A DNA stretch of 40,991 nt from an uncultured Candidatus Bathyarchaeia archaeon (GTDB taxonomy: Archaea > Thermoproteota > Bathyarchaeia > Bathyarchaeales > WAQA01). Each line of letters starts with the position of its first letter. Positions within the stretch are counted from its first letter, which is position 1. Shown piece after piece: positions 3,784 to 23,661 of this stretch. The DNA is taken from contig CAZBDB010000001.1 in the NCBI GenBank assembly GCA_964490655.1, positions 1 through 40,991 of the forward strand. The letters run 5' to 3'. The translations under genes and the position numbers were made by a program. The notes beneath the pieces were generated by a model. It did no database searches and was not told where the DNA came from. It saw nothing but the letters and a program-made list of their open reading frames with translations.

Positions 3784-5919
3784 TCAGGAACTGGGCTCGA
3801 AGGTTATTCTGTAAGGCGTTCTTGGTTCTGCTGAGAACCTCAAGAGGCCATTGTCCAGCTGAGAGCTTATCTGCTCTGTTTTTCCGTCTTCGCTGAGTTT
3901 CAGAACCTTGACACCTTGTTCCTTACTCCAGTGTCGCGGAACAGGATAGCTGAAGAGGCCCCCGTCTTTACTGTATCCTAGATACACATTGTCTTTCTTT
4001 GAAACGAAGCATGTGAAATCCTTAGAGATTATCTCGCCATTCACCTGCACAGCGTATTTCCTAGCTTTGAAGTCAACTTCAACGTAGCTTCCGTCTTCAT
4101 ACGTCACTTTCTCCACAGGTCCTTCTTTGAAATAAGAGTCCATTTTCTTCCCGCAAAGCTTGTTCCAAGGCAATATGACAAGGTAGTACCTATCAGTTAT
4201 AGCGTGGAGGGTGTATGGTGCTCTCAAGGACCGAGAAGTTGCTGCGCCATACAGTAGACTCTTCATGATGCCTAATTTGCCGCCTCCACCTGCCCCGCCA
4301 TAGCCCGCCTTGCTGTGATATATGAATGGGATAAGAGGTATTTCTTCCTCATTCCGGTAGTACACATTATTCCATACGCAAAGGTTTAGGAACCAGCTTA
4401 CGGGACCAACAAAGATACTGCTGAAGTCCTCCGTGGTTACATCTACTCCATGCTTGTTGAATTCTTCTATTATCATGAATTTGCCTTCCAGGTTCTTTTT
4501 GGCCGCAGCGGGGCTTTCTGGGTTGAAATCGTACTTTCTCCCACCTTTGAAACCCCCAGCTAGCACATCGATGTGGTATGACACTCTTATTGGATACTGT
4601 TTCAGCGTACGACGTGCTCTCTGCAGACCACTCTTCATGGCATACTTATAGTTACTGATTAAGTAGGATTGGCCTGAGTTCCAAACGCCGGCCGCCATTA
4701 AGTGTCCTTCTGTATCCCTGCAAATGGTTTCCGGATCCCATTCTGGACTTGACATGTAGGCGTCGTCATAATTGTCATGAAAACTGACCACCGCATTGAG
4801 TTTGCTTGCTTCTTCAATTAGTTTGACAAGATCCTTGTATCCTCCGAGTCTTTCATTGACTTTGTCTACAGCTGGATAGCCTGTATCGTGACCGGTGTAC
4901 TGCCATCCAGCCAGATACACGATTTGGGGTGCAAAGTCGGTAAGGTGTGCGATCTTCTTTAGCAATTCTAGGGTCTCGGGAAATGTGGTGAATTCCTTCC
5001 GGCCCGGTGCATCCAGAAAGATCTTGTACACAAATTTGTCAGCGTATAATGGGTTGATCGAAACATTGATTTTGTCTCTGATGTACTTGGCAGCGTCTAC
5101 CCATGAAGTTTCGCCGTCATTATCATGGTCGCCTATGATGGATATCAACGCTTCAGAGGATTCTTGAACTAGGAGATGATATTTCGGATCGCGAGCTGGA
5201 ATCAGATAGCCGTATTCCACTAGGTCATATTCCCGCAATCTGAAAACAAAATCTAAAGACAATGAACAGTATCGTTCATCGTCCGATCCATAAATGCTAT
5301 TCCTCATCTGGTTTTCCAAAGAATCGGTTTCGAGTATACCTATCACCCTATCGTTGTAAACGAACTCGGCGAGCAATGGGTTAAGCCAGTCGATTTTGAA
5401 CTTCACGCTTCCGTCGGGAGCTGTAGCCACGTCTACAAGCCGTCCAGCCTCAGCTGGAAAGCCGAGTTTCGCCTGGTTTCCCTCATCCTTTACCGTAATG
5501 AGGCGTGGCATACTAATGCTGATAAGGTGGAAATCCTTGTTCTCAACGACGTTGTCGAATCTGATGGATAAGCCGTTGTCTGTCAGAACAAAGAATAGGT
5601 CAAATGCTACAGCTTCATCTTTTCCATAGGTGGCAATGACGTGGTAGTTAGCTGCGTCTTCAGCGAACTTTGCCTCATAGGATGTCTCTATGAGATTTGA
5701 CGGAAGGAGATCAGCTCGTTTACATATCGCAAGTCTATTAGAGGGCCTGCGCCTGCGGGCTTGGTAGACCTCACCTAAAAGTTTGCCATTTGATGGCTTG
5801 TAAAGATACTCGAATATTGACGGCTCCTTTTTCCCTACTGCTATCCTTACTTTGGGGTTCTCTAGGTAGACTACCTCACTCTTTTCTTGACATAAGTCAA
5901 TAATGCTCGACATATTCAC
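3784..5919 (-). CDS. GH101/GH129-like glycoside hydrolase (endo-alpha-N-acetylgalactosaminidase-like fold); no signal peptide
   Basis: 711-aa ORF. The central region LGGYKDLVKLIEEASKLNAVVSFHDNYDDAY ... VSYHIDVLAGG ... HGVDVTTEDF follows, from my memory of the GH101 family profile, the pattern (..GvHvNatE.. / ..fiYvDVy.. / ..vatEf..). That would place a candidate nucleophile Asp in HIDV and an acid/base Glu in TTED. The N-terminus MNMSSIIDLCQEKSE has no hydrophobic leader. The family call is a remembered motif pattern, not a search result. Confidence 0.55.
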   Translation of the reverse strand: MNMSSIIDLCQEKSEVVYLENPKVRIAVGKKEPSIFEYLYKPSNGKLLGEVYQARRRRPSNRLAICKRADLLPSNLIETSYEAKFAEDAANYHVIATYGKDEAVAFDLFFVLTDNGLSIRFDNVVENKDFHLISISMPRLITVKDEGNQAKLGFPAEAGRLVDVATAPDGSVKFKIDWLNPLLAEFVYNDRVIGILETDSLENQMRNSIYGSDDERYCSLSLDFVFRLREYDLVEYGYLIPARDPKYHLLVQESSEALISIIGDHDNDGETSWVDAAKYIRDKINVSINPLYADKFVYKIFLDAPGRKEFTTFPETLELLKKIAHLTDFAPQIVYLAGWQYTGHDTGYPAVDKVNERLGGYKDLVKLIEEASKLNAVVSFHDNYDDAYMSSPEWDPETICRDTEGHLMAAGVWNSGQSYLISNYKYAMKSGLQRARRTLKQYPIRVSYHIDVLAGGFKGGRKYDFNPESPAAAKKNLEGKFMIIEEFNKHGVDVTTEDFSSIFVGPVSWFLNLCVWNNVYYRNEEEIPLIPFIYHSKAGYGGAGGGGKLGIMKSLLYGAATSRSLRAPYTLHAITDRYYLVILPWNKLCGKKMDSYFKEGPVEKVTYEDGSYVEVDFKARKYAVQVNGEIISKDFTCFVSKKDNVYLGYSKDGGLFSYPVPRHWSKEQGVKVLKLSEDGKTEQISSQLDNGLLRFSAEPRTPYRITFEPSS

Positions 5920-5940
5920 TCGTAAGCACCCGAAGCATAG

Positions 5941-5952: not shown

Positions 5953-5953
5953 A

Positions 5954-6129: not shown

Positions 6130-8016
6130 CTAACTCTTGCGGCGTTTCGATATGTACATCTTATAAGACACTACAACTGCTATGACTGCAACCACTGCGA
6201 CTCCTGCAATTATGTCTATCATCTGACTTGGAGCAGCTTCGGACAGGATCAACGTAACGTATACATGGCCTTCCAGATCAACAGAGGTTTGATTTGCCCT
6301 AGATATGTGAATATTCAGATCCGGCACATCGTAGTTATACGAGACCTTAACCTCGGCCGACCCCTCAGGTAATCCCGAAAACTCGTAGACCCCAAGTTTG
6401 TTGCCATACCCTTTGAAAACTTCGCCCCCAACTGAAACCTCCGCGTCTGCATCAGGCACAACCGAACCATTAGGCCAATAGACCCTTAAGGTCAAAGCAG
6501 GTTCTGATACAGGCTTCAAAAGAATCTGTGCAAGTCCCCCACAGAGCCCTTCTACTTCGTAGCGACTCTGGAAGCCGGACGCAGTCACCAAGACTTGGTA
6601 GAAGCCGCTTCTCAACTCTGATACGCGATAGTCACCGCCTGAATCGGTTACACCAGATTCCCTCAGTGCGCTTGTAGCGTTGTATAGCTCGACTAATGCG
6701 TCTCTCACCGGGACCCCCGTTTCATCATTGTAGACATGAAAGACTACATCCTCCTGCAGAAGGGGCGACCGCATCTGTTCCGCGAATGAAGCCATGCCTT
6801 CCTCGTTGAAGCCTGAGTAGGCATAGACCCAGAGCCCTCCTCTCCAGAATTCTCCAGATTTCAGCTCTAGCGGAAACCTTATCAAACCAGCATTTATCCC
6901 CATGTTTATTCTTCCACCCCAACTGTGGAATCCTCCGCTAAACCACCAGTCCATGCCTTCACTTGAGCCGAACATGTAGGACGCAAGCATGCCCACAGAT
7001 ACACCTCTGTCACCCCACATGACCACCCAATCAGCTGGAACCTGAGGGCCATCTTCGACGGCTGCATACAAGTAATTTGGGGGACCTCGTTCAAGAATCA
7101 CTTCCATATAAGCCGATATGTTCTCCTGGATCTGATACAGCCCTTGTGTTGTTTTGCGACCGCAAGTGTCATAAGCTCCAATGAACGGCATACCGACCGC
7201 AGCAAGGCGTAGATAGTCGACCCCCCTCCCCGACGCAGATGCACTTGTAGCTCTTATGACAGTCACTTCCTGCTCTACAAAGAGCCTCAAATCCTCAGAG
7301 CTGTAATATACGTAGACGTCTGCTGTATTCGTTACATTTCGAGATGAGTATTGGAACCTGAAAACAGAGATCAGTGCGCCTATTAGTATCGGCTCCGGAG
7401 GCTCTACAAGCTTGTTTGACCGTATCTCACTATACATGCCGACCCAAGGATTGTCATAAACCAGCGGTAGGTTGAGTGTGCCTACAGGCGTTCCGTACAG
7501 GAAGAGATCTGCCGTCCCGTCGGGATTTACCTCAACAAAGCCGTATCCAACTGTCAGCTGCCACACGCCTCCCTTCTTCGTGACAAGAATGCCCGCGTAT
7601 TCAGGTTTCTCTGCTTGTGTATTTCCATAGTATATTATGTACTCTCTCCTTGAGTTTGGTTCCTGTTGAGCCAAAAAGGCGACATTGGCTTCGACACACC
7701 ATCCCTCACTATAGACCTCTTCTAAGACCTGGCTTGTCACCTCTTGACCAGATTCATCGGTCACTCTTATCTCCTTAGTAGCGTTCACACATTCGCCTGG
7801 AGCAAAGTCCATCTTGACGGTGACGACCTCATTCGCTCTTTCCAATCCACGGTCTTCACTCAGAACCACTTTCTTACTATACTTCCACGCACTCCACTCA
7901 TCATCCGCAGATTCGGAGAATTGTGTCATAGAAGGAGTTAAAAGAATTGTCAGAAGTACAAACAGAACGACTTTGGACAAAATGGACGAAAGCTTCGACA
8001 TGTTTAGCAATGTCAT
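6130..8016 (-). CDS. Surface-anchored protein: signal peptide, DUF2341-like N-terminal beta-sandwich, unknown central domain, two CarboxypepD_reg-like domains, C-terminal TM plus basic tail
   Basis: 628-aa ORF. The N-terminal domain pattern is W.WKYSKKVVLSE...VVTVKMDF...EIRVTDESGQEVTSQV...REYIIYYGN. Two prealbumin-like modules are present (VFHVYNDETGVPVRDALVEL...GDYRVSELRSGFYQVLVTASGF and LRVYWPNGSVVPDADAEVSV...). The C-terminus is IIAGVAVVAVIAVVVSYKMYISKRRKS. The TATA-like box at 8024..8037 sits too close to the ATG at 8016, so Met6 (ATG at 8001, MSKLSSIL...) is the more likely, leaderless, start. Confidence 0.8.
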   Translation of the reverse strand: MTLLNMSKLSSILSKVVLFVLLTILLTPSMTQFSESADDEWSAWKYSKKVVLSEDRGLERANEVVTVKMDFAPGECVNATKEIRVTDESGQEVTSQVLEEVYSEGWCVEANVAFLAQQEPNSRREYIIYYGNTQAEKPEYAGILVTKKGGVWQLTVGYGFVEVNPDGTADLFLYGTPVGTLNLPLVYDNPWVGMYSEIRSNKLVEPPEPILIGALISVFRFQYSSRNVTNTADVYVYYSSEDLRLFVEQEVTVIRATSASASGRGVDYLRLAAVGMPFIGAYDTCGRKTTQGLYQIQENISAYMEVILERGPPNYLYAAVEDGPQVPADWVVMWGDRGVSVGMLASYMFGSSEGMDWWFSGGFHSWGGRINMGINAGLIRFPLELKSGEFWRGGLWVYAYSGFNEEGMASFAEQMRSPLLQEDVVFHVYNDETGVPVRDALVELYNATSALRESGVTDSGGDYRVSELRSGFYQVLVTASGFQSRYEVEGLCGGLAQILLKPVSEPALTLRVYWPNGSVVPDADAEVSVGGEVFKGYGNKLGVYEFSGLPEGSAEVKVSYNYDVPDLNIHISRANQTSVDLEGHVYVTLILSEAAPSQMIDIIAGVAVVAVIAVVVSYKMYISKRRKS

Positions 8017-8099: not shown

Positions 8100-10262
8100 C
8101 TATACTCCCCTAAGGATCCTAGCTTTCTTCCGAAGCAGATCCAGCTTGATACTTGTGTAGCCCTCGACCTCTTCAGATCGCAACTTCGCTTCGGACTCAA
8201 GATCGACGAATTCGTATGACCCCCGTATTCTGATCTCGCTGCTCACATCTTCTTTATTATGGTTGAGCACGATTAACGCCTTCACTCCGTTGTGTTCCAA
8301 CAGCCCAGTTTCGATATTACTCCAGAGACTTGGAGTAACGCCTTTGACCTCGACGGGACTCTCAACGCCACCAGCGTGGAGGAGAGATCTGACGAACTCC
8401 CTCCAATCCCCTTCTTTGAGCAGAAAGGATTGGAACATCAATGTGCCGACGAGGACTGCTCTTCCTTTGCCGAAGCTGTTCTCGACGATCGCAGGCTCCC
8501 CGTTGGGAAACTCTGCGATGACCCTTGATTCTTCCTCTGACCTGAGAATCTCGCGGAAGGCATGCAAGGGCAGCTCCGCACCAGCGGACGGATACTTCCT
8601 CTTGAACTCCTCGGTCAATCTCAGACATTCGCCTTCTTCAGGGGTCTCTATGTCATAGGAGTAGCCTCCGAAGGCTTCGTTGAGACCGAACCCGGGTGAA
8701 GTAAGGTGAACAGCTCCGTATTCGTTCTTCATGGCGCATCCGAAGTCGGCTATGAGGCAACCGCCATTCCGCACGAAGTCTATGATGGCCTTTGCTGCTC
8801 CCGCGTCCAGCATATAGGTGAACGGCATAAGCAGAACCTTGTAACCTTTTAGCCTGCCAGCTGCGATCGAGGGTGGATTGATGAAGTCACAAGGGATCTT
8901 TGACTCCCATAGCATCTTGTAGGCGCCGAGCTGAGACTGTGCATAGTATCTCCTCTCGCCCCTGTAGGGATGAAAGATAGTCTCATCGGGTATCTCAGAG
9001 CCGGCGGCATTCTTACATGTTTGAGACTGAAGGATCGCGACCTCGGCCTTCGGACGGGCTTTGAGGAAGAGCTCCATATTGCGATTTACGATCCTGCTGG
9101 CCCTCCCAGCTGCCTCAGCTCTCGGTCTTAGGCTTCCATCCTTGGCTACTAGCCCGAATTCGTTGTTCTCCCAGCCTGAACCCACATTGCCTATCCTTGG
9201 CCTCCAGAGCCAATAGATCTGTCCCTTCCCTCCTCTGGCAACTGTCTGCCAGGCCCAGAGCTCTATCTGCTCGGGAGACGGGGTAACCGACCTTGAGTGA
9301 GCCCAGATTGTTGGGCCCCCTTGGAGCTCTGAGACCCAAGCGTCCTTGCCTGCCGCTGAAGCGGCTGAACGCACACTGTCCACGATCTGAGAATAGCACC
9401 ATGGAAAGTCTCCGCCGCCTTGAGTCCATAGATATATAGAGACTCCCAGAGTGTCAGCTGCTCTGTCAGCCATCTTCCATGGATCAGCACCGACAGCCGG
9501 TTGGTTGTACAGGATCTGATGGAAGAGGAGATTTGTATGGGTTGGATGGTTTGGGTCTCCCTTCCTTAACGAGTCGGAGACGAACTTCACCCGTTCGGTC
9601 AGGTTGTCATCGCAAAAATCTCTCCAGTCCAGCCAAGGCTTGTAGGTCCCCCAAGATCTCAAAGGACGGTTGGGCGGAAGCACCTGCATGAAGTCTTTGA
9701 AGTTCCTGTTCCAGGCGTTGTTCAGACCTTCCAGGCTGCCGTATCTGACTTCCAACCATTTCCTGAACTTGTCCACAGAGTATTCACAGTAGCATGCGAT
9801 ATTGCTGTAGGTTATGTGAGGCTCATTCCAAGAGACCCAACAGAACAGCCCTGGATGGTCTTTGAAGCGGGACGCTAGCGCTGTCAGGAACTCAGCAGCG
9901 CCGCGGCGTACGTTCGGGTTGTCAAAGCACGGCTGGAATTGAGGATATGGTTTGCCGATCTTCGTGTTAACGCCGATCACGCCTTCACCGATCTCTTCCT
10001 TGGTGATGTCAGGCGGGGGTCCAACACCGACCGTCAGAGCACATTTTATCCCGACCTCTGCCGCGATATCCAAAACTTCGTCAACATCGAAAAAGTTGTA
10101 GACGCCTGCTTCCCGCTCGATGTGGCTTCTAGGAACGAAGCCTCTGAAGACCGTGAATCCGAGATCCCTCATCTTCTCCAAATCTTCTCTTGCGCATTCT
10201 TTGGGCGGAAAGTCGCCGCCAACTATGTATGTAGCCCCAAAAGGGAAGATCTCCTTACTCAT
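8100..10262 (-). CDS. GH42 family beta-galactosidase, cytoplasmic
   Basis: 720-aa ORF with the GH42 layout. The TIM barrel has the acid/base region CWVSWNEPH, the Cys-containing segment IACYCEYSVDKFRKWLEVRYGSLEGLNNAWN, and the nucleophile region AWVSELQGGPTIW. This is followed by a GH42M-type (GATase1-like) domain AEVAILQS...YKVLLMPFTYMLDAGAAKAIIDFVRNGGCLIADFG and a C-terminal beta domain. No signal peptide. Confidence 0.85.
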   Translation of the reverse strand: MSKEIFPFGATYIVGGDFPPKECAREDLEKMRDLGFTVFRGFVPRSHIEREAGVYNFFDVDEVLDIAAEVGIKCALTVGVGPPPDITKEEIGEGVIGVNTKIGKPYPQFQPCFDNPNVRRGAAEFLTALASRFKDHPGLFCWVSWNEPHITYSNIACYCEYSVDKFRKWLEVRYGSLEGLNNAWNRNFKDFMQVLPPNRPLRSWGTYKPWLDWRDFCDDNLTERVKFVSDSLRKGDPNHPTHTNLLFHQILYNQPAVGADPWKMADRAADTLGVSIYLWTQGGGDFPWCYSQIVDSVRSAASAAGKDAWVSELQGGPTIWAHSRSVTPSPEQIELWAWQTVARGGKGQIYWLWRPRIGNVGSGWENNEFGLVAKDGSLRPRAEAAGRASRIVNRNMELFLKARPKAEVAILQSQTCKNAAGSEIPDETIFHPYRGERRYYAQSQLGAYKMLWESKIPCDFINPPSIAAGRLKGYKVLLMPFTYMLDAGAAKAIIDFVRNGGCLIADFGCAMKNEYGAVHLTSPGFGLNEAFGGYSYDIETPEEGECLRLTEEFKRKYPSAGAELPLHAFREILRSEEESRVIAEFPNGEPAIVENSFGKGRAVLVGTLMFQSFLLKEGDWREFVRSLLHAGGVESPVEVKGVTPSLWSNIETGLLEHNGVKALIVLNHNKEDVSSEIRIRGSYEFVDLESEAKLRSEEVEGYTSIKLDLLRKKARILRGV

Positions 10263-10420: not shown

Positions 10421-11596
10421 CTATGGTCCCTGCTTTCTTCTTCGCATCTTTAGAACTATCACCAAGACAATGATGACTATGATTGGCACAGCGGCCAGTG
10501 ATAGGTCTCTCATCATTGCTGCTGATCGCTCAGCATCTTCTGCCTGTCTCAACAAGTTGGAAGCTTCATCTAAGTCATCCCTGCCGCCAACCACATCGCC
10601 CCCTATGATCTTGCCGTAGGCAGATTCAGCGGCGGCCAGCGCTTGGGACGCCAGACTCTTAGCGCCTGCGTCTGTGAAGGATTCAACTGCTTCTGCGGAG
10701 CTGCCTTCAGTCCTTCCCAAATCAGCCAACAGGTTTACCATGTCTAGAGATGACTGGTAGCCTCCCGCACCGTGAATGTACAATGCAACTTCGGCTTTCT
10801 TCACCTCATCTCTTGTCATTGCTCCTTCGCCATAGTCCGCTTGCTTCAACTCAGCGCTGAAGACTGTACCATTCTCCCTTTGGTCCCATATGACATAGGA
10901 TACATACAAGTTCGGATCTAGGTTGACAACGGTGATCCCTTCCATCGGTTTGCTGAAGTCCATCCAGAAGGTTGTCTGACTCGTCTCAAACCGTCCAGCC
11001 GCGCCTTCAACGAACTCGGCCGGGAGATCTACCTCCTGCACAGCTGATCCCTCGACGCTGACATAGGCTTTGCCGCCAGCGAATACGTTGCCGGGGAACC
11101 CCCACAAGCCCCACGCGATCATCGTCACAGTAGGTGCATCTTCATCCGCTGTCAAGGTTGAGGAAACGAAGATGACTCCAGTTCTGGTTATGGTCAAATC
11201 TGTCTTAATTGACAATGGGTACGTGAGATACTCGCTGAAACATGTCAAAGTAACATAATCATCCATATCCTGAATGATGGGCTCACCGGTCGCATCGCTC
11301 CCCGTGGCTTGGGGGCCATCCTCCTCCCATACACACCAACCTGCTGCGGTGGCGTATGTCATGTGTGCTATTCTTATCTCGCTGATTCCGCCGTTCTCAA
11401 GGATGACGGCCCTGAAGATCTCCATACCAGTTGGGTCTGTAAGGAAGACATGTATCTCATCGTCTATAACCTCAATGGAGAGATCGTCTGGCTCTTCTTC
11501 AGCATACGAGGAATGCAAGAGACAACATGCGCCAATGATAGATAAAGCCAAATAGAGAGAGATTACGTATCTCAGAAATGTATGGTGTGCATTCAC
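10421..11596 (-). CDS. Family C surface protein: signal peptide, beta-rich ectodomain, Ala/Asp/Glu-rich helical stalk, C-terminal TM plus RRRK tail; function unknown
   Basis: 391-aa ORF. It has an N-terminal leader (VISLYLALSIIGACCLL), the conserved strings SSTLTADEDAP, IAWGLWGFPGNVFAGGKAYVSVEG, FWMDFSKPMEGITVVNLDP and VALYIHGAGGY, and the C-terminus AAVPIIVIIVLVIVLKMRRRKQGP. Paralogues are at 11752..12939 and 36668..37858. Confidence 0.85.
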   Translation of the reverse strand: MNAHHTFLRYVISLYLALSIIGACCLLHSSYAEEEPDDLSIEVIDDEIHVFLTDPTGMEIFRAVILENGGISEIRIAHMTYATAAGWCVWEEDGPQATGSDATGEPIIQDMDDYVTLTCFSEYLTYPLSIKTDLTITRTGVIFVSSTLTADEDAPTVTMIAWGLWGFPGNVFAGGKAYVSVEGSAVQEVDLPAEFVEGAAGRFETSQTTFWMDFSKPMEGITVVNLDPNLYVSYVIWDQRENGTVFSAELKQADYGEGAMTRDEVKKAEVALYIHGAGGYQSSLDMVNLLADLGRTEGSSAEAVESFTDAGAKSLASQALAAAESAYGKIIGGDVVGGRDDLDEASNLLRQAEDAERSAAMMRDLSLAAVPIIVIIVLVIVLKMRRRKQGP

Positions 11597-15222: not shown

Positions 15223-16302
15223 ATGGTGGAAAGGGTCATGTCTGAGAGCGTTTCCTTCGGTCCCTGGCGCGGCTTCAACCTATTGGAGAAGTTCACTGTC
15301 CGGAGGAACTCACCATTCTTGGAGCTTGACTTTCAGCGAATGGCTGAGTGGGGCTTCGATTTCGTACGGCTTCCCATGGACTACAGATGCTGGATCATCG
15401 ATGGAGATTTCTACAGGATAAACGAGAAAGTACTTAAAGAGATAGATCAGGCTGTTGAGTTTGGAAGGAAGTATAGGATACATACAGACATCAACTTTCA
15501 CCGAGCTCCAGGCTTTTGTGTGAACCCTCCATTGGAGCCGTTGAGCTTATGGAGTGACAGAGAGGCATTAGACGCGTGCGAGTACCATTGGAGGCTTTTC
15601 GCTGAACGTTACAAAGGTATCCCTAGCGAAGAGGTTAGCTTCAACTTGGTGAACGAGCCACGCGGAACCAACATGCAGACGTACAAGCGCTTCGTTGACA
15701 GAATGCTACATGCAATTAGGGAGATAGATCCCTATCGGCTGGTGATAGCTGACGGTTTGACGGGGAACTATGAACCCGTGCCTGGAATCGATGATCCGTT
15801 GCTTGGGCAAAGTTTTCACGTATATCAGCCAGGGTGGCTTACTCATCTAGGCGCTAGCTGGACTTATGTATGGTTCAATTATGATGAACAACCTGAGTAT
15901 CCCGGAGTGGCACCGAACATCGACAAGTACCTAGAAAAGCTGCCACTTGACTCTCCCCATCGAGGAGCTTACCTGAGGTACAAGGGTGTGGGAATCGACA
16001 AGGATTGGCTAGAGCAGTGGATGAAACCCTACATAGACCTAAAGGAGAAAGATGGGGTATTCGTTCACTGTGGTGAGCTCGGAGTCTATTCGAAGAAGGT
16101 TCCACGGCGATCTCAACTCAACTGGTATCGGGATGTTCTAGAGATTCTCAGTCAACACAAGATTGGATGGGCCCAATGGAACCTGAGAGGACCCTTCAGC
16201 ATAATGAATACAGGCCGAGAAGAATTCCACAGCGAAACGTTGCCAGACGGAGACCGCTTGGACAGAGAATTGCTCAGACTCATTCAAAGCTATCTAAAAT
16301 GA
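15223..16302 (+). CDS. GH5 family glycoside hydrolase (cellulase/mannanase-type), cytoplasmic
   Basis: 359-aa ORF starting 6 nt after the previous stop, so probably the same operon. GH5 hallmarks are WGFDFVRLPMDY, the acid/base motif SFNLVNEPRG and the nucleophile motif FVHCGELGV. No signal peptide. Confidence 0.8.
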   Translation: MVERVMSESVSFGPWRGFNLLEKFTVRRNSPFLELDFQRMAEWGFDFVRLPMDYRCWIIDGDFYRINEKVLKEIDQAVEFGRKYRIHTDINFHRAPGFCVNPPLEPLSLWSDREALDACEYHWRLFAERYKGIPSEEVSFNLVNEPRGTNMQTYKRFVDRMLHAIREIDPYRLVIADGLTGNYEPVPGIDDPLLGQSFHVYQPGWLTHLGASWTYVWFNYDEQPEYPGVAPNIDKYLEKLPLDSPHRGAYLRYKGVGIDKDWLEQWMKPYIDLKEKDGVFVHCGELGVYSKKVPRRSQLNWYRDVLEILSQHKIGWAQWNLRGPFSIMNTGREEFHSETLPDGDRLDRELLRLIQSYLK

Positions 16303-16602: not shown

Positions 16603-16624
16603 GTACAAGTATTACTACTCTAGC

Positions 16625-18010
16625 ATGAAGCAGATTAGACTGTTATGCCCACTCCTTTTGTTCATAACCATCGTCGTGTCTTCGTCCCTAATGCCGCTGT
16701 TCGCTCAGACGGAGGAAAGCTACAGAAGTGTTCATAATGCGTTTTATGTTCATGCGCCGGGGATGTTCTATGATTATGTGTGGGCAGTCTCTGTCATAAG
16801 TTTGGCGGCTGACAACCACATATCACTATACGAGCTAACCAAGGAAGGTGGAGAACTTGTGAAGGAAGTGGATCTGGATGCCCAAGAGGTCTTCAGATAC
16901 AATGGCAGCGAGGAAAGAGCGAGGAACTTCAAGATAGTATCGACGGGTTCAGTATCTGTGTCTTTCCATGGCGGTCAGATCAACGCACCTTGGGACTGGG
17001 GGTTGGGATGGGGATCAGGTTCAACATTCTACACTGCAAAGAGCGGAAGCTTCGTAGGAAAGGAATTCATATTTGCTCCGTTGCCAAACACGAGAGTTCT
17101 CCTAGGAGATTTGATAGTTGACCAATCTACACCTATCGTCTTCGCATTGGACGACTGCGAGGTAACCCTTGAAGGACCCTATGGACCAGTGGACGAGTGG
17201 TTCATGTTCGCCGATTCATCAAAGGAGCTCAATCCGCTAACCGCTGGAGTTGTCCACCGTTTGGTTTCTTCAGGAGACGTCCTCTTAGCAACCTTCAACA
17301 ATAACAGCTTCACGGTTGTCCCAAGCCTTTCTGGAGAACTCACAGGAGCAATATTCATAACCAGACCTGAGCTGCAGAACCAAACCGACGATCCACTTAG
17401 ACTCTTTGGAGGCTTGGTGGTCTATACCTACGAAGACTGCGAAGTATCTGTGAGAACTCTTGAAGGCAGAGACCTTCTGAAAAGTCTTAGCCTCAATACC
17501 GGAGACTACGAGTTCATATCAGATCTGCCATTAGTAGATGTGTACGTTGAGGCAACCGGCACTATTGCCTTGTGGTCTGCCAGCGCTAGGGGCTCACCGA
17601 TACCGGCAAATCTGGGTGACGATCTGACTTTCTTGGCCGGCACAGGTACTCTAAGGTTTTTCGCTCCTTCGTACGCCATGGCTTTTGCGCCCGAAGACTT
17701 GGAGTTCACCTTGGACGGCTCAACCGTGGGGCTTGAAAAGGACAGATATACGGAGATCAAGGGTGGATACCATGTGATTGAAACCGATAAACCTTTGATT
17801 ATTGAAGTAGTGGCTTTGTCTCAGCTCACCGGGCAAGGAAGCGGACCCAACAGCTTTGGCACGACGGTTCTGACAGTTGGGAGTGCGGTTGCAGAAGCCC
17901 CAGCTAAGGCGGAGGCCGGCATGGACTTGACACCGATAGTTGCGGGCGTAGCCGTAGCAGCAATTGCTATCGTCGTAGTGCTCTTGCGCATGAGAGCGAA
18001 GAAAGCCTAG
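16625..18010 (+). CDS. Family B surface protein (paralogue of 1518..2945)
   Basis: 461-aa ORF with signal peptide MKQIRLLCPLLLFITIVVSSSLMPLFAQ. The repeat signatures match family B (LDDCEVTLEG, YEDCEVSVRT, PEDLEFTLDG). The C-terminus is LTPIVAGVAVAAIAIVVVLLRMRAKKA. A TATA-like box lies about 29 nt upstream of the ATG. Confidence 0.85.
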   Translation: MKQIRLLCPLLLFITIVVSSSLMPLFAQTEESYRSVHNAFYVHAPGMFYDYVWAVSVISLAADNHISLYELTKEGGELVKEVDLDAQEVFRYNGSEERARNFKIVSTGSVSVSFHGGQINAPWDWGLGWGSGSTFYTAKSGSFVGKEFIFAPLPNTRVLLGDLIVDQSTPIVFALDDCEVTLEGPYGPVDEWFMFADSSKELNPLTAGVVHRLVSSGDVLLATFNNNSFTVVPSLSGELTGAIFITRPELQNQTDDPLRLFGGLVVYTYEDCEVSVRTLEGRDLLKSLSLNTGDYEFISDLPLVDVYVEATGTIALWSASARGSPIPANLGDDLTFLAGTGTLRFFAPSYAMAFAPEDLEFTLDGSTVGLEKDRYTEIKGGYHVIETDKPLIIEVVALSQLTGQGSGPNSFGTTVLTVGSAVAEAPAKAEAGMDLTPIVAGVAVAAIAIVVVLLRMRAKKA

Positions 18011-18023
18011 AACAGAAAGATGT

Positions 18024-19631
18024 TCAGACTGGAATAGACGCTATTCTCTCGTCGAAATAGTATTTTTGCGTTTCGCTGTCGTAGCCGAGGGCGACTACTC
18101 TAACTGTAAGGCTATCTAACCCCTCAGGATAATCGAGGGGAAGTGTGGACAATCTCAGTTCTCCAGCAATGTAGGCCTTTTCTGTTGTGAAGTAGGCGTA
18201 TCCTGTGTCCTTATCTCCTTGGCCGGTCAGCCCTGTCCATACAGAGTGTATGACAGCCATAGCTGCATCCCAAGCTACGTCGTTTACTAAGTCGTCCCAT
18301 GAGGGATAACGGGCGCGAACATCCTCCATCCATCTCACAGGAGCGCTCTCGACAACGCCAGTATACCAGACTCCGCCTGTACCATTCACAACGGGAAGAT
18401 ACGTAACCGTAGACCAACTCCACTCCTTCAGGGTCTCTTCGAACATACCGTAAAAGTAGGTGTTCGTCAGCAATGCTGGTCCCTGTCTCTCCCCCTTTAT
18501 ACGTACAGACCGATCCACGTACTCAGTTCTCAGTCCAAGGGTCTTTCCAGCTCTTGTCGGGCCTAAAGGCGTGTTGATGTAGCCGCCTTCAATAGCGTCG
18601 TATCCTAGGAGCCACCAATCTCCACGTCCTGCCCATACGTTGACCCTCCAAGCTTCCTCGCCTGGAATGTTCATTGATGAACCATTCGTTGGTTCACCAT
18701 AGTAGTATCCTAGATATTCGCCTATCCAAATGAGAACGCCGCCGCCATGCTTGAGCCATCTAGAAGTCAGGCTTTGCTGGTCTTCCTCGCCGTACCACAC
18801 TGGTGGACTTCCGTATTTCGGTAGGACATCAGCTCCCATTATTACTATGGCTGGCTGCATCTCAACCATAACATTCCACAGTCCGAAACGGTCTATCATC
18901 TCAACCTCTATTCCAGCTGAGGACAGTATTTCAGAGACCTTCTCGTAGTAGTCCATTATCTCAGGTTCGTTTCCTATCGCAGAGTTGTTGAAGATTGGGT
19001 CGTAGTAGAATTTCACAGGTCTGTATCCTGACCATGTTGGTGTGAAATGGGTGAATTGCATAACTCTGACCCAGTCCAATCCGTTAGCCTCTACGTCCAA
19101 GCTAGCGGATAAAGAGCCATCATCTTCTTTTGACGCTGCTAGAGAGCCTAGACTCAGAAGGCTTCCCTGCTTTAATGTTGAAGGAGCCTCCACGACGATT
19201 TGTTCAACTCTTACACTAGGGATTAGCGCGGCTTCGGGTGCTGAAGCTGAAACCCTCAAGTTGTACTCTTCCCCTAAGCTCCAGGCATTTTCGATTCTGA
19301 CTAGGGCGGTCTCTTTCGCGTTCAGCGTGATCTGTTCTCTAGGCTGCATTGGACCCCCATCCATAGATACGCCCGCGGATTGTCCTGGGAAAACCTTATC
19401 GTCGCCCACATAGATCTCATTCACCTCTAACGGTTCATCGCCTACGTTATCGATGAAGAAGAGAGCATAACGTTGTTCCTCCTGAGCTGCTAGAACGGCG
19501 TTGATCTTGAAATCCACTGCTTTGCCTAACAGGTACGGAGTCAGAAATTCGGCAGCTACAACCGCTACGATCACCACTACAACCGCAACTGCCGCAATCT
19601 TGCGCTTATCCATAAGGCTTGCTTCCCCCAC
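18024..19631 (-). CDS. Family A surface protein with an N-terminal signal-anchor (paralogue of 1..1344)
   Basis: 535-aa ORF from the GTG at 19631. By comparison with the paralogue (MDKRKIA...), the ATG at 19613 is the more likely start. It has a single N-terminal TM helix (IAAVAVVVVIVAVVAA). The central stretch PAIVIMGADVLPKYG...SLTSRWLKHGGGVLIWIGEYLG resembles the GATase1/ThuA-like pattern seen in the middle domains of both GH42 genes (weak, by eye). Confidence 0.85.
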   Translation of the reverse strand: MGEASLMDKRKIAAVAVVVVIVAVVAAEFLTPYLLGKAVDFKINAVLAAQEEQRYALFFIDNVGDEPLEVNEIYVGDDKVFPGQSAGVSMDGGPMQPREQITLNAKETALVRIENAWSLGEEYNLRVSASAPEAALIPSVRVEQIVVEAPSTLKQGSLLSLGSLAASKEDDGSLSASLDVEANGLDWVRVMQFTHFTPTWSGYRPVKFYYDPIFNNSAIGNEPEIMDYYEKVSEILSSAGIEVEMIDRFGLWNVMVEMQPAIVIMGADVLPKYGSPPVWYGEEDQQSLTSRWLKHGGGVLIWIGEYLGYYYGEPTNGSSMNIPGEEAWRVNVWAGRGDWWLLGYDAIEGGYINTPLGPTRAGKTLGLRTEYVDRSVRIKGERQGPALLTNTYFYGMFEETLKEWSWSTVTYLPVVNGTGGVWYTGVVESAPVRWMEDVRARYPSWDDLVNDVAWDAAMAVIHSVWTGLTGQGDKDTGYAYFTTEKAYIAGELRLSTLPLDYPEGLDSLTVRVVALGYDSETQKYYFDERIASIPV

Positions 19632-19739
19632 CTAGAGTGCAGCTAAAGCGAAAGAAGTTAATATATTTATCCAAAGCTCCCGCTCACGAACAAACCCTTG
19701 TGACCTGAAATAGTAGACTCGCCTGCAAATGCGCACTCA

Positions 19740-20993
19740 TTATCTGCTTAGTTGCTTGAGTTTGGCAAGTGTTTCAATCATGGCTCTACTGTTATGATAG
19801 GCCGATTTCCAGATGTCAGCCTTATTGCCCACTGGATCGCCGTCTGGCCTAACTATATTGAACCAGTCTCCGTTTCTCCAGTCCACTTGGTGGTTCTCAA
19901 TCCAGTCCAAGGTCTTTTCGAAATGCCCGAGATAAACTGGGTCTCTGGTCAAATGGTACATGTAAGTCTCACTTACTAACGCCTCAGCTTGGATCCACCA
20001 TACCTTGTCTAGGCGATCAGCGGGTTGATTAAGCGGTCCACTCTCGTAGAGCCCGCCCTCTTGAGTGTCAAAGCCGAATCTAGCAGAATAGGAGAACACA
20101 GTCCTGTAAAGATCAGTAAGCAGACTGTCAGGAATCTCAACTGTTCTAGAGGCATCCATAAGGAGCCATACATTCTCAAGATCATGCCCGTAGGAGACCC
20201 GACCATGCTCAGGCCCATGCAAGGGCGTCCAATCAGAATGAAACTCCTCGGCGCACGCACCCACGTTCTTCCGTACCACCGCGTTGCTCAAGACGAAGAT
20301 CATCTCAGTCAGTCGCTCCCGTGCCACACGATCCTCGGTGGCTCTGTAATATGTGATTAGCGCCTCAAGCATGTGGAGATGAGTATTCATCAGTTTGACT
20401 TCCGAGATGAAACCTAAGTAGCCTTGCTCATCGACCGGTGCCTCCGACCAATCACGGAGGAAATACTCACGATATCCACCATGCTGGTCGTCATGGGAAT
20501 GCTTCTCCATAAGGTTGAACAATCGTCCAGCTAGACCGAGGGCTTCTTCATCCTTACTGGCCATAGCGAATTCAGATAACGCATACAGACCAAAGGCCTG
20601 ACCGTACATGTGCTTGTTAAGTCGCAAAGGATTGGCCTTAGAATCCACTTCCCAGAAGAAGCCGCCATTTTCAGCGTCCCATATTCGATCACGCAAGAAG
20701 CGATATCCATGCTCGGCAGCTTCAAGAAATTCCGTGCCACCCCAGCCGGCGTTGAACACCTTTGAGAAGAACCAAACCATCCGTGCCTGCGTAACGATCA
20801 TCTTAGTTCCTTCACCCATCGGCTTGCCGTAGACATTATGATTTAGGTAATAGCCGCCCTTCTCACGGTCTATTGATGCAGGATACCAGAATGGCATAAT
20901 GTTTTGGGTGAGGATTTTCTCCAATCGTTCTCTCGTTTTCTGACACCATCTACCTGAAAAGCTTACTGTCATATTGATCAAATCCAAACTCAA
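19740..20993 (-). CDS. AGE-superfamily epimerase/isomerase (N-acylglucosamine 2-epimerase / cellobiose-mannobiose 2-epimerase / aldose-ketose isomerase type)
   Basis: 417-aa ORF with the typical (alpha/alpha)6 AGE pattern: IMPFWYPASIDREKGGYY, VTQARMVWFFS, DAENGGFFWEVD, HMYGQAFGLYAL, NTHLHMLEAL, SYGHDLENVWLL. No signal peptide. Confidence 0.8.
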   Translation of the reverse strand: MSLDLINMTVSFSGRWCQKTRERLEKILTQNIMPFWYPASIDREKGGYYLNHNVYGKPMGEGTKMIVTQARMVWFFSKVFNAGWGGTEFLEAAEHGYRFLRDRIWDAENGGFFWEVDSKANPLRLNKHMYGQAFGLYALSEFAMASKDEEALGLAGRLFNLMEKHSHDDQHGGYREYFLRDWSEAPVDEQGYLGFISEVKLMNTHLHMLEALITYYRATEDRVARERLTEMIFVLSNAVVRKNVGACAEEFHSDWTPLHGPEHGRVSYGHDLENVWLLMDASRTVEIPDSLLTDLYRTVFSYSARFGFDTQEGGLYESGPLNQPADRLDKVWWIQAEALVSETYMYHLTRDPVYLGHFEKTLDWIENHQVDWRNGDWFNIVRPDGDPVGNKADIWKSAYHNSRAMIETLAKLKQLSR

Positions 20994-21114
20994 CTTATTC
21001 CTACAGATTCTGATAAAAGCTTACTGCATCCGTCTTTTGACGTTTGGCTGATGCTGGCTCAGGAAAGAGCCGCGGATCTATTACTGCAGCAGAGAAAAAG
21101 AGGGTGAAGGGAGA

Positions 21115-23661
21115 CTATTTTGTTTCTATCTCATACCATAGTGTCTCATTCTCTGGTCCGATCCTGATGACCGACCTTCCTTCCTCTTCCTCCACGGATA
21201 GATTCCTCTTTCTGAAGCCTTTCTCGTCGAGAGCGTAGACTTTGACTCTCTGGGCTCTGATGGGTAGCGTGATCTTTGCAGGGATTCCTTCTACCATGGA
21301 GGGAGCTTCACCCCATTTGGTTCCGACGGTGAATTTGCCCTCATCCCAGCCCATATTGGTGTTCTCAGCATATCCGGTAGCTGTCAGTAATATCCTGCCT
21401 GGAGAAGAGAAGTCCTCACCCTCCAAGACCGTCGAAGTAATGCACGCCCAATCTTGCACGGTATCACCTGGAGCAATGGTCACCTCTCCCAGATCGAAGA
21501 CTCTATTCCTTACAAACCCGATGAGCATCTTCGTCTTTCTCGCATTTGCAGTCACGTAGCCCGCGTCTGGCATAGATAGATTCCATACTAGCTGGTTTGT
21601 ATCGCTTATCATGATCGGGTCTTCATCGCTGACATCTGTGACTCTGGGTTTCTCCTCAGCATCACCGTAGCCTACTGATACTCTGTGCTTCAAGGGTGTT
21701 GCGAAGGGAGCCCCCAAGGTGTAGACGCTCAGCCCAGCAGGACCCCTAGATCTTACAGCGTCAATCACAGCTTCTTTGTCAAATACAGCTTTGACATTCA
21801 ACTTCCCCGGTTCAATGTCGCCTCTCAGGAACATGGCTACGGCAGGTATCAATGCCACGAGCTTGGTTGGGTGAGAGTCGATGTCGAAGAAGTTGGGAAT
21901 CCGCCCCATATTCCAAGCATCAAGCCTGTGACAGTAGGAGAAGGAGAATATCCCATCCCAATCTTGGAAGGCAGCGTATGCTGCGAGCAGGGGGAAGGCT
22001 TCTGAACAGTATGTGTTCGGCGCTGGGTGATTGTATTCGGTTACTGTATAAGGGTAGCCTTCAACCCTCATACTTGATAAAGGTCTTAAGGTCCCTCCTT
22101 TAGAGTTCACCATTGAAACATTGTAGACTATCCAATCTTCACGGTCCCAAGGTCTAGCAGGAAACCTAGGATGCTGCCAATAGGAGTGGCCGTCTACGAA
22201 GTCCAACTCGGCTTGAACTGGGAATATGCTGAAACGAACCTGGGTGCCTGCTACCAGAGACTTGGCTCTGAGATCCTCCTTCAAGTATCTGTACATTTCG
22301 GTGTAATAGGTCTCCTCGAGTTTCCACAGAAACTCCACAAAGTCTCTTTGGAGCTGCGGGGATCTTCTGGAGAAACTATCCCTATCCAGCAGGGAGACGG
22401 TGCCTTTCTCTATGCTCTCTTCCTCCTCTAGGCCGTAAGAACCGCCTGGCCTCAGTGAGATGTCGCTTATCCAGATATCCCCCTTAGCCCTCGTAGCTGG
22501 CGCGAAAATCAGCTCAGATCCTTCCACGCTCTGTGGGATCTGGAAGCTGAACTCGTATCTTTTCCACTCCGTGGAGAGATCGAAGACTTTGATAACTGCT
22601 AAGAACCAGACGAACTCTGTCGCCTCTTTAAGTGTAGGCTCTTGCACGTAGAAGCCCAGTCCGCGAGGCGTATCAGCCCTAGTCCAAAAGGATAGTGTAT
22701 ATGGAATCTCGCCATCCATATCCACTTCGGATCTGACCTGAACATCCAACCCTTCCAGCCCCGGTTCTGCTATTCCGAGCTTTAGGGCCTCTCTTCCTTG
22801 AGGTCCCTCTCTTACGCTTTCAAGCTTGGCCTCGGCCTTCTTGGTAGTCTGCAGAGTCCACTCATTACCTTTCAATAGGTCTTCTCTGAAGCTTTCCTTC
22901 TCTTGGGAACCCATAAAATCGGTCGCACCGTATTTTCTCTTGAGAAACAGGTTCCAAAGGAGTCTGAGCTCTTCGACGTAGTGTTCGGGGAGATCAATGA
23001 GGTTCTTCCCTCGCCAGCTCCTCCACCAGCTGAGGAATAGGCTGTTCTCGTTGTTGATCTCTATGAAGGCGACCGCGGGCTCCTCGATGTATCTGCTTCC
23101 AGTGTAGGGGTTATGGTGAGTGAGAAGGTCGCGGGCGTATTTCTTCTGGTAGCCGATCATTCTGTGGTCGAATATGTCTACGCCTTTGTCCATCAGTGGG
23201 AGTTTGTCCCAGTCTGGGAAGCCTTCGGTGTCTGTTAGTTTCCTTGAGACTTTAAGGTTTAGATCTGCGTAGATGCCGTTTTTCTTGAGTTGATATATCA
23301 GATAGTCGAGCTTATCCAGTTGATCGGGGTCAAGGTGTACTTTGTCCTTGTATTTTGGGTCTAGTATGCCGTTTGGGGCGTGTCTCATGTCCATGTGGTG
23401 GAATCTTACTATGTTTATCCCGAACCTTGCCATTCTCTTGGCTATTTTCTCAGCTACATCCTTTTCAGGGAAACAGGCACCGAAGCAGACATTAGTCCCG
23501 AAGAATCTTATTCTTCTCCCGTCTCCCGTATAGAACTTGCCGTCTTTAACTGTTAGGAAACCCGTTTTTCCAGCTGGCTTTCCTATCCAATGGCTTACAT
23601 TAGTGATGTTTTCTGAGAAATCATCCCATGGGATGACGAATGGAAAAAGTTTCTCGGTCAT
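21115..23661 (-). CDS. Large clan GH-A (GH5-like) glycoside hydrolase with an inserted CBM-like beta-sandwich; cytoplasmic
   Basis: 848-aa ORF. The N-terminal TIM-barrel pattern is RFFGTNVCFGACFP...GINIVRFHHMD...GIYADLNL...VAFIEINNENS (candidate acid/base Glu), with a later EGYPYTVTEYNHP (candidate nucleophile Glu). The middle segment YTLSFWTRADTPRGLGFYVQ...EWKRYEFSFQIP resembles CBM4_9-type modules. No signal peptide. Confidence 0.6.
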   Translation of the reverse strand: MTEKLFPFVIPWDDFSENITNVSHWIGKPAGKTGFLTVKDGKFYTGDGRRIRFFGTNVCFGACFPEKDVAEKIAKRMARFGINIVRFHHMDMRHAPNGILDPKYKDKVHLDPDQLDKLDYLIYQLKKNGIYADLNLKVSRKLTDTEGFPDWDKLPLMDKGVDIFDHRMIGYQKKYARDLLTHHNPYTGSRYIEEPAVAFIEINNENSLFLSWWRSWRGKNLIDLPEHYVEELRLLWNLFLKRKYGATDFMGSQEKESFREDLLKGNEWTLQTTKKAEAKLESVREGPQGREALKLGIAEPGLEGLDVQVRSEVDMDGEIPYTLSFWTRADTPRGLGFYVQEPTLKEATEFVWFLAVIKVFDLSTEWKRYEFSFQIPQSVEGSELIFAPATRAKGDIWISDISLRPGGSYGLEEEESIEKGTVSLLDRDSFSRRSPQLQRDFVEFLWKLEETYYTEMYRYLKEDLRAKSLVAGTQVRFSIFPVQAELDFVDGHSYWQHPRFPARPWDREDWIVYNVSMVNSKGGTLRPLSSMRVEGYPYTVTEYNHPAPNTYCSEAFPLLAAYAAFQDWDGIFSFSYCHRLDAWNMGRIPNFFDIDSHPTKLVALIPAVAMFLRGDIEPGKLNVKAVFDKEAVIDAVRSRGPAGLSVYTLGAPFATPLKHRVSVGYGDAEEKPRVTDVSDEDPIMISDTNQLVWNLSMPDAGYVTANARKTKMLIGFVRNRVFDLGEVTIAPGDTVQDWACITSTVLEGEDFSSPGRILLTATGYAENTNMGWDEGKFTVGTKWGEAPSMVEGIPAKITLPIRAQRVKVYALDEKGFRKRNLSVEEEEGRSVIRIGPENETLWYEIETK

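Follow-up and report, generated by a model that had tools for sequence, protein, structure and literature searches.

What does a gene cluster rich in glycosidases live on if its enzymes stay inside the cell, the proteins at the surface match no catalytic domain and no ATP-binding cassette (ABC) sugar importer is encoded beside them? The question is raised by a stretch of 40,991 nucleotides from an uncultured Candidatus Bathyarchaeia archaeon (assembly GCA_964490655.1, contig CAZBDB010000001.1), referred to below as the window. The answer put forward here, for which the chances are about even, is that the window is an oligosaccharide utilisation locus of an uncultured hot-spring archaeon, with capture at the surface, import through a module of DUF6785 and FtsX proteins and breakdown in the cytoplasm.

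The window corresponds to positions ~1,795-42,785 of a 125.9-kb metagenome scaffold (ENA ERZ23499174, ZHAO22-1 scaffold_51). The readable source contig covers positions 1-51,766 (~52 kb) with the flanks L001 and L004. The window contains 22 credible genes, and the nearest genome record is a hot-spring metagenome-assembled genome labelled Thermoproteota (JAWCMB010000016) with a syntenic locus at 37-71% protein identity. Open reading frames (ORFs) were read from the earliest start codon possible downstream of a stop, which makes an N-terminal extension impossible. Compartments were called with a Kyte-Doolittle hydropathy scan, in which a transmembrane (TM) segment is a 19-residue window with a mean >=1.6. 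Domain identities are from Pfam, and family-less status was checked down to E<=10.

Predicted localization of the encoded proteins

The recognisable carbohydrate enzymes, mostly of glycoside hydrolase (GH) type and with lengths in amino acids (aa), are the following.

3784..5919, minus strand: GH101/GH129-like enzyme, 711 aa, cytoplasmic (Pfam Glyco_hydro_101 E=1.2e-16, DUF5696; no hydrophobic N-terminus)
8100..10262, minus strand: GH42 beta-galactosidase-type enzyme, 720 aa, cytoplasmic (Pfam Glyco_hydro_42 E=1.2e-43, Glyco_hydro_42M E=1.7e-22; no signal)
13163..15217, plus strand: divergent GH42-like enzyme, 684 aa, cytoplasmic (Pfam GH42 E=6.7e-15, GH42M E=5.7e-9)
15223..16302, plus strand: GH5 enzyme of the TM1752/Man5B/CelC type, 359 aa, cytoplasmic (Pfam Cellulase E=1e-21)
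19740..20993, minus strand: AGE-superfamily epimerase of the cellobiose/mannobiose 2-epimerase type, 417 aa, cytoplasmic (Pfam GlcNAc_2-epim E=4e-50)
21115..23661, minus strand: clan-A-like glycosidase, 848 aa, with an inserted CBM4_9-like domain, unanchored in this genome (Pfam Cellulase and CBM_4_9, both weak)
40072..40991, minus strand: 3' part of a GH140-like gene, cytoplasmic (full gene, 540 aa, in L004)

All seven (7/7) lack an N-terminal hydrophobic segment even when read as the longest possible ORFs, and none has a twin-arginine N-terminus. The six full-length enzymes contain no 19-residue TM window, and their best 10-residue N-terminal score is <=1.85. The initial annotation had stated that six enzyme genes carry no signal peptide, and this was borne out together with their Pfam identities. 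The remaining gene, described there as DUF4038-like and too truncated for its N-terminus to be judged, was completed from the source contig and likewise has no hydrophobic N-terminus; the full GH140-like protein carries DUF5060 (from residue 8), Apiosidase and Collagen_bind_2 domains and no signal. A twin-arginine (Tat) signal in the GH101-like protein (RRRR, residues 55-58) was rejected, as no hydrophobic stretch follows it. A hidden N-terminal extension of the 848-aa enzyme was also rejected, with in-frame stops directly upstream of the ATG and 126 bp to the divergent neighbour.

Eight single-pass proteins are exported or anchored: three of a family here termed A, two of family B, two of family C and a protein of 628 aa. 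Five more proteins in the window are polytopic. Families A and B and the 628-aa protein have a signal-like N-terminal segment and a C-terminal TM anchor, and family C has an N-terminal anchor. No Pfam match was found for families A, B and C even at E<=10, and the 628-aa protein matches CarboxypepD_reg only. The claim that the exported proteins have no recognisable catalytic domain also stood, since Pfam gave no such match in any of them. Membrane or secreted genes are enriched in the window (13/22, P about 7e-4 at a 25% background), and the synteny of these genes with GH genes in other genomes strengthens the point.

GH42 enzymes, GH5 enzymes of the Man5B/TM1752 type, cellobiose/mannobiose 2-epimerases and the GH129 enzyme NagBb are intracellular and act on imported oligosaccharides. 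Because these enzyme families are usually intracellular, the cytoplasmic half of the split is expected and ordinary. The finding of seven signal-less enzymes out of seven is not surprising by chance either (P = 0.3-0.75 at a signal/TM rate of 4-16%). This rate is the share of carbohydrate-active enzymes (CAZymes) that have a signal or a TM segment among Thermoproteota that degrade polysaccharides, both cultured and uncultured (PMC12542729). The split had been presented as an anomaly against known glycan loci, and on the enzyme side that view did not hold up.

It is highly improbable that some of the signal-less glycosidases leave the cell non-classically, through vesicles, lysis or unrecognised signals, which would make the split only apparent. 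The characterised relatives, identified through PDB matches, are intracellular, and the lack of hydrophobic or twin-arginine N-termini in all seven enzymes argues in the same direction. Such a route would agree with the placement by DeepTMHMM of 20-48% of Thermoproteota CAZymes outside the cell despite the lack of a signal peptide (PMC12542729).

ABC transporter genes in the cluster

Walker-A and LSGGQ motifs are absent from all frames of the window, L001 and L004, and no solute-binding protein (SBP), permease or ATPase label was obtained with Pfam in contig positions 1-51,766. The Pfam scans of all window proteins contained no solute-binding protein and no BPD_transp_1 permease. The claim that no canonical sugar ABC transporter is encoded is thus upheld by motifs and Pfam labels in the window and in contig 1-51,766. 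Because the signal-less enzymes, the family-less exported proteins and the lack of ABC parts all checked out, the observation that raised the question is confirmed. Its interpretation stood in part: the cytoplasmic enzymes, the unknown surface proteins and the lack of an ABC importer in the cluster remain, while the anomaly on the enzyme side and the "OPT-like" label given to the membrane module (see below) do not.

The DUF6785/FtsX module

Instead of an ABC importer, the window contains five adjacent genes for membrane proteins.

23788..24372, plus strand: 194-aa membrane protein with 4-5 TM segments (hydropathy)
24419..26416, minus strand: DUF6785/DUF6784 polytopic protein "a", 665 aa, candidate importer (Pfam DUF6785 E=9e-21, DUF6784 E=4e-9)
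26811..29846, minus strand: FtsX-domain surface/membrane protein, 1011 aa (Pfam FtsX E=6e-10, CarboxypepD_reg)
29863..31860, minus strand: DUF6785-like polytopic protein "b", 665 aa (no Pfam match)
31874..36553, minus strand: FtsX-domain surface/membrane protein with an M28-like ectodomain, 1559 aa (Pfam FtsX E=5.5e-14, Peptidase_M28 E=7e-10)

DUF6785a scores above the Pfam gathering cutoffs for both of its domains (DUF6785 74.4 bits, cutoff 25; DUF6784 36.9 bits, cutoff 26.4), and DUF6785b is a remote paralog of it (hhalign 92.7% probability, E=4e-7, 494 columns). The FtsX domains, at 39.6 and 52.7 bits, are also above their cutoff (25.5), and the NCBIfam ADOP and LolCE matches of these proteins are far below theirs. 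Both FtsX proteins consist of a signal peptide, a large ectodomain, 4 TM, a second ectodomain, the FtsX TMs and a cytoplasmic tail of ~160 aa. Each FtsX gene directly precedes a DUF6785 gene. The tails (residues ~850-1011 of 26811-29846 and ~1390-1559 of 31874-36553) have no family match; they lie at the opposite end from the ATPase of MacB, where the ATPase domain is N-terminal.

The five-gene module recurs beside GH genes in at least five related archaeal loci, despite rearrangements. The order M28-FtsX, DUF6785b, FtsX, DUF6785a, 194-aa protein is found in L003, L007-L009, L012 and L093 and is rearranged in L011, and the module is flanked in varying order by the GH5, epimerase, GH42 and 848-type enzymes and by families A, B and C. 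Homologs of the 194-aa protein always adjoin DUF6785a (L003, L007, L008, L010-L013, L093). At L093:220-21975, where DUF6785a is 76% identical, GH42 comes directly after the module, and then a gene the size of family A (391 aa), a third fusion with FtsX (1106 aa) and GH5. A DUF6785a of 42% identity keeps family A and the 194-aa protein as neighbours and has no FtsX protein there; beside this group are GH141-like, GH10, sulfatase and GH42M fragments. Another, of 22% identity, lies 6 kb from an 848-type enzyme. Beyond the module in L007-L009 there are non-sugar genes (PCC, RraA-like), besides a gene of family A and another for an 848-type enzyme, of which the beginning is present. No ATPase was found in the window or in any syntenic module locus.

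In the proposed mechanism, oligosaccharides would cross the membrane independently of ATP through the two divergent DUF6785/DUF6784 proteins, each paired with a giant FtsX protein, together with the 194-aa protein. We infer that the DUF6785 proteins are the importers and the FtsX proteins their helpers.

The wider DUF6785 family was sampled in a scan of JGI metagenomes, which gave at least 198 relatives, of which 79 loci (856 genes) were kept. The neighbours are for the most part cytoplasmic enzymes of catabolism, most often URO-D-like (30 loci), Gfo/Idh/MocA (14) and xylose-isomerase-like TIM-barrel proteins (10); fewer loci have aminotransferases, GH4, MTTB-like or UxaC-like neighbours. The distant members (L014-L089) are 25-30% identical, and 22 loci contain two or three paralogs. 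Only 1/856 of the genes around these loci is ABC-ATPase-like, and it is not adjacent. The pattern fits ATP-independent solute importers of varied substrates and does not itself indicate sugar.

Evidence against sugar import by the module

The points that weigh against import of oligosaccharides by the DUF6785/FtsX module are taken together here. The strongest comes from another contig of the same sample, scaffold_615 (L091), where an Opp/Dpp-type ABC system with two ATPases carrying oligo_HPY and two permeases is encoded at 16581-21059, at a distance of 5 kb from a GH3 gene, a BNR protein and a fourth copy of family A. The composition of scaffold_615 (GC 0.482, tetranucleotide correlation 0.93 with the window) suggests that it probably belongs to the same genome, which would then have a canonical Opp-type ABC transporter elsewhere. 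Opp-type ABC transporters are the kind that several thermophiles use for oligosaccharides. The initial annotation had named a sugar ABC transporter just outside the window as evidence that would count against it; none is present in contig 1-51,766, and the Opp-type system is on the probable same-genome contig.

The family itself gives little guidance. Many DUF6785 relatives adjoin non-glycan enzymes (URO-D-like, MTTB), and the substrate is therefore not readable from family membership. A full-text literature search gave no mention of DUF6785. To our knowledge no FtsX/MacB-type protein imports anything, and such proteins normally need an ATPase. Families B and C and the 628-aa protein, which may take part in capture, gave a functional clue in none of the searches.

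The label "OPT-like", which refers to the oligopeptide transporter (OPT) family, did not survive for the window proteins. Neither DUF6785a nor DUF6785b matches OPT in Pfam (E<=10) or NCBIfam, and PDB sequence and profile searches with these proteins gave no OPT match. The AlphaFold2 (AF2) model of DUF6785a is of medium confidence (pLDDT only 68.7, pTM 0.77), and its best Foldseek match among solved structures, which include a published yellow stripe (OPT-family) transporter (PMC9691689), has E=0.02 and a TM-score of about 0.1. OPT membership of the window proteins was rejected on these four lines (Pfam, NCBIfam, PDB profiles, Foldseek). When family members were scanned one by one, Pfam OPT was matched by 4/72 (best E=2.9e-9); 28 members other than the window proteins, scanned singly in search of these four, gave no match. 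The OPT motifs cited in PMC3061005 are not conserved either, with NPG in 4/72 and K[IVL]PPR in 0/72 members. DUF6785 proteins resemble the OPT family (TC 2.A.67, PF03169) in being polytopic, in having no ATPase partner, in the few Pfam matches above and in their size of ~665 aa, which is that of prokaryotic OPT subclusters (PMC3061005). They differ in that the window proteins have neither match nor motifs and in that OPT proteins carry peptides and metal chelates and not sugars. "OPT-like" is thus a weak lead, not membership.

The OPT hint and the M28-like domain could together indicate peptides rather than sugars. In this domain of the 1559-aa protein (residues ~275-300) the metal-ligand sites read AYYDS and GATES in all four orthologs, where the motifs would presumably be H-x-D and G-A-x-D-N. 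With neither motif intact in the four orthologs, this domain probably has no aminopeptidase activity.

These observations lead to a different explanation, in which the membrane module is unconnected with sugar uptake (its role perhaps being peptide uptake, envelope or S-layer maintenance, or export), the enzymes are fed by an Opp/CUT-type ABC transporter elsewhere and the clustering is only partly functional. The Opp/Dpp system near GH3 and a family A gene, the M28-like domain, the weak OPT link and the known action of FtsX proteins in export or mechanotransmission all favour it, as do the PCC and RraA-like genes beyond the module in L007-L009, although family A and the beginning of an 848-type gene are present there too. 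It is nevertheless judged unlikely. The module keeps GH42, GH5, epimerase, 848-type and family A genes beside it in at least five loci with differing gene orders, DUF6785a with the 194-aa protein and family A recurs beside GH141-like and GH10 genes without FtsX, and the metal-ligand motifs of the M28-like domain are substituted in all orthologs.

Family A and its fold

If the module imports oligosaccharides, these or polymers would first be captured by lineage-specific anchored surface proteins acting on beta-linked galacto-, manno- or gluco-oligosaccharides, for which family A is the best candidate.

10421..11596, minus strand: family A, 391 aa, with signal peptide, mutarotase-like beta-sandwich, three-helix stalk and TM anchor (AF2 model)
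11752..12939, minus strand: family A, 395 aa (48% identity with the 391-aa copy; its signal segment can be aligned to the paralogs' segments)
36668..37858, minus strand: family A, 396 aa (54% identical to the 391-aa copy)

The three copies are 45-54% identical to one another. In the public call for 11752-12939 the protein has 356 aa, with a start 39 codons downstream by which the signal peptide is lost; the longer start matches the paralogs.

The fold of family A, as modelled, is regarded as established. The AlphaFold model is confident (pLDDT 86.9, pTM 0.79, alignment of 11 sequences) and contains a signal helix, a beta-sandwich at residues 38-274 and a bundle of three helices, the last of which runs on into the membrane anchor. 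The predicted structure is a beta-sandwich and not the two-lobed fold of binding proteins. Foldseek gave 143 matches in the PDB at E<=0.001, all of the galactose-mutarotase-like supersandwich type. The best is domain 5 of a GH2 beta-galactosidase (6sd0, E=4e-9); a mutarotase (1nsm) has E=5e-8, and 9k1g gave TM-scores of 0.47/0.41. Other matches are GH38 mannosidases, GH36, a GH174 fucanase, OpgD and the P1 domain of YidC. The likeness to supersandwich domains (GH2 domain 5, GH38, GH36, GH174, OpgD/GH186) is one of fold at residues 38-274. The identity is 7-12%, which is no sequence similarity, and unlike those domains the family A sandwich is free-standing, carried by a three-helix stalk that is anchored in the membrane. 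Its invariant residues are E59, D213, D238, R240 and H275.

Family A is rare, with 37 clusters at E<=1e-3 among 1.84 billion representatives. The distant member P0048 (838 aa) consists of a signal peptide, a family A domain and a GH5 catalytic domain (E=1.6e-27), and P0035 (519 aa) of a family A domain, a Pro/Thr linker, a mannanase galactose-binding-like domain and an anchor. Elsewhere one copy lies beside an FGGY kinase and a heparinase-II/III-like gene and another beside GH3, BNR and Gfo/Idh/MocA genes. Because of the sandwich fold, the fusions to GH5 and mannanase modules and the presence in other sugar loci, family A is best read as a putative glycan binder at the surface, which may also be catalytic.

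Families B and C and the 628-aa protein

The other exported proteins are encoded as follows.

1..1344, minus strand: 3' part of the second family C gene (full gene 550 aa, L001:18919-20571; TM 6-24; no Pfam match)
1518..2945, plus strand: family B, 475 aa (TM 28-46 and 452-470, i.e. signal-like N-terminus and C-terminal anchor; no Pfam or PDB match)
6130..8016, minus strand: 628-aa surface protein with signal peptide, ~400-aa domain without match, two CarboxypepD_reg Ig-like domains and C-terminal TM anchor
16625..18010, plus strand: family B, 461 aa (paralog of the 475-aa copy, 30% identity)
18024..19631, minus strand: family C, 535 aa, with N-terminal TM anchor (12-30) (no Pfam or PDB match; convergent with family B)

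The two family C proteins are 63% identical, and the B-C gene pair is also present in L003 and L011. Only three homolog clusters of family B (461 aa) were found among 5.8 billion proteins. PDB sequence and profile searches gave no match for families B and C and the 628-aa protein. A relationship of family C to the GH42 trimerisation (GATase-like) domain was rejected (hhalign probability 0.8%). Common descent of families A, B and C and the 628-aa protein was rejected as well, only their TM anchors being alignable. The proposal that the unknown surface families include new depolymerases or binding proteins was thus strengthened for family A, by its fold and its GH5 and mannanase fusions, and not for families B and C and the 628-aa protein.

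Enzyme relatives, substrate and downstream conversion

Under the proposed mechanism, the imported oligosaccharides would be dismantled in the cytoplasm by the two GH42, the GH5, the 2-epimerase-type, the GH101/129-like, the 848-aa clan-A and the GH140-like enzymes. The 711-aa GH101/129-like enzyme matches EngBF (2zxq, E=5e-20) and GH129 NagBb (5wzn, E=5e-8) in the PDB, both at residues 245-422 only, which is part of the catalytic region. The 684-aa GH42-like enzyme is 23% identical to the 720-aa GH42. The nearest PDB entries to the GH5 enzyme are Thermotoga TM1752 (1vjz, E=6e-60), Caldanaerobius Man5B (3w0k, E=1e-51) and CelC (1cec, E=1e-34). The epimerase matches a cellobiose 2-epimerase in the PDB (5zig, E=1e-67) and NCBIfam EpiA (E=4e-60, below the equivalog cutoff). 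It is reasonable to regard beta-galactoside or beta-mannoside (or glucoside) oligosaccharides as the substrate. The initial annotation had suggested beta-galactosides or beta-mannosides, which agrees with the nearest characterised enzyme relatives (GH101/129, TM1752/Man5B GH5, 2-epimerases).

38010..39972, plus strand: Zn-dependent dehydrogenase (343 aa) and xylose-isomerase-like TIM-barrel protein (270 aa), cytoplasmic (Pfam ADH_N, ADH_zinc_N, AP_endonuc_2)

These two proteins have a probable role in downstream sugar conversion. A PIG-L deacetylase gene and an amidohydrolase gene lie just outside the window, and the last step would be conversion of the products by the dehydrogenase, the isomerase-like TIM-barrel protein, the deacetylase and the amidohydrolase.

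The 848-aa enzyme matches a GH5 mannanase in the PDB (E=1.6e-4). Residues N204-E205 and E542 are invariant in four homologs and may be the Asn-Glu acid/base motif and the nucleophile Glu by which clan GH-A (beta/alpha)8 barrels are recognised; otherwise this putative class is supported by weak GH5 matches. Homologs in two sister loci (L003:17132-19855; L012:14052-16877 and L007) have an N-terminal TM segment, which in L012 is followed by an acidic P/T/E-rich linker. The segment is found neither in the window copy nor in that of L006:18203-20833. The same 848-type family thus occurs in free and membrane-attached forms between loci. In related genomes it may be a membrane-attached enzyme, perhaps at the surface.

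Both the 848-type homologs and family A bear on a further explanation, that the organism is a pure scavenger which makes no depolymerase and imports the oligosaccharides released by its neighbours, with surface families that are binding or structural proteins and include no new hydrolase. Consistent with this, no exported protein has a catalytic-domain match, and in most of the structural matches of family A the fold belongs to an accessory domain without catalytic role. A study of Thermoproteota Tardisphaerales suggests that Ca. Martarchaeaceae, with few exported CAZymes, lives on oligo- and monosaccharides (PMC12542729). On the other hand, mutarotase and OpgD use the same sandwich for catalysis, and the matches include a GH174 fucanase; families B and C and the 628-aa protein have large ectodomains without known fold, and the 848-type homologs with TM segment and linker in sister loci may be surface enzymes. 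Scavenging alone is considered quite unlikely.

Promoter elements and noncoding sequence

A motif scan identified a BRE/TATA-like promoter core.

23696..23706, 26453-26463, 36585-36595, 37882-37892, all on the minus strand: BRE/TATA-like promoter core AAAATCTTA(T/A)A

The four copies of AAAATCTTA(T/A)A precede four minus-strand genes, those for the 848-aa enzyme, DUF6785a, M28-FtsX and one of the family A proteins, and lie 24-37 bp upstream of their start codons. Four matches were found against 0.74 expected, and four were reached in 0/100 shuffles. The same core is also found upstream of DUF6785 and of other, unrelated genes in distant loci. Because it precedes unrelated genes there, the core is a promoter consensus of the lineage rather than an operator specific to this locus. 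It is the only element common to the upstream regions, and the idea of an operator shared by the locus genes was rejected.

No tRNA was found in the window, and the window has no match in Rfam. The 838 bp at 2946-3783 contain no convincing ORF (the longest, of 101 aa, has no sign of a real gene) and no Rfam match.

Comparison with known glycan-uptake systems

Uptake of carbohydrates of plant and microbial origin by uncultured archaea of hot springs and sediments has mostly been inferred from ABC transporters and CAZyme counts, and the locus is a recurring alternative to that arrangement. A bolder form of the proposal is that the DUF6785, FtsX, 194-aa and family A proteins constitute an unrecognised ATP-independent capture and import machine of archaea, an analogue of the Sus and ABC systems, and that at least one of the surface families is a new glycan-binding or depolymerising family; in this full form it is tentative and rather doubtful. 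If the module imports oligosaccharides, a large DUF family with at least 198 JGI relatives gains a role, reconstructions that score sugar uptake by ABC genes alone undercount it, and new thermostable proteins that bind or degrade glycans become available. Otherwise this is an ordinary cluster for processing oligosaccharides in the cytoplasm.

The FtsX proteins can be compared with the type VII ABC permeases of the MacB/FtsX type and with ADOP (TIGR03434), which also have FtsX at the C-terminus and a large ectodomain that lies between TM1 and TM2. ADOP proteins likewise have no adjacent ATPase. The FtsX proteins of the window differ in scoring far below the family cutoffs and in having extra N-terminal ectodomains (M28-like, CarboxypepD_reg), three extra TM, the ~160-aa cytoplasmic tail, a DUF6785 gene as partner and no ATPase in any locus.

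The polysaccharide utilisation loci of Bacteroidota (SusC/SusD, "selfish" uptake) also encode surface glycan-binding proteins beside an importer and internal glycosidases, for which the window has candidates, and the family A sandwich on its stalk is functionally reminiscent of such surface proteins. Here there is no outer membrane, TonB-dependent transporter or SusD, and all proteins are unrelated; Pfam scans of the window proteins gave no pair of SusC-like TonB-dependent transporter and SusD-like protein. A literature search for archaeal "selfish" polysaccharide uptake found nothing relevant among the papers listed.

The closest parallel in enzyme content is with the oligosaccharide clusters of Gram-positive bacteria, Thermotogae and archaea, which combine a secreted endo-enzyme, an SBP-dependent ABC importer (CUT1/Opp) and cytoplasmic GH42, GH5 and epimerase enzymes. 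Examples are the mannan cluster of Caldanaerobius with Man5B and the galactan/GH42 clusters of Bifidobacterium. The window has the same cytoplasmic set (GH42, Man5B/TM1752-type GH5, 2-epimerase) and the same logic, and differs from these clusters in that SBP, permease, ATPase and recognisable secreted endo-enzyme are replaced by unnamed surface families and the DUF6785/FtsX module. The enzyme content and the principle of import followed by degradation are thus already known, and what is new is the recurring DUF6785/FtsX module in place of an ABC importer, the three or four lineage-specific surface families and the carbohydrate-type fold predicted for family A.

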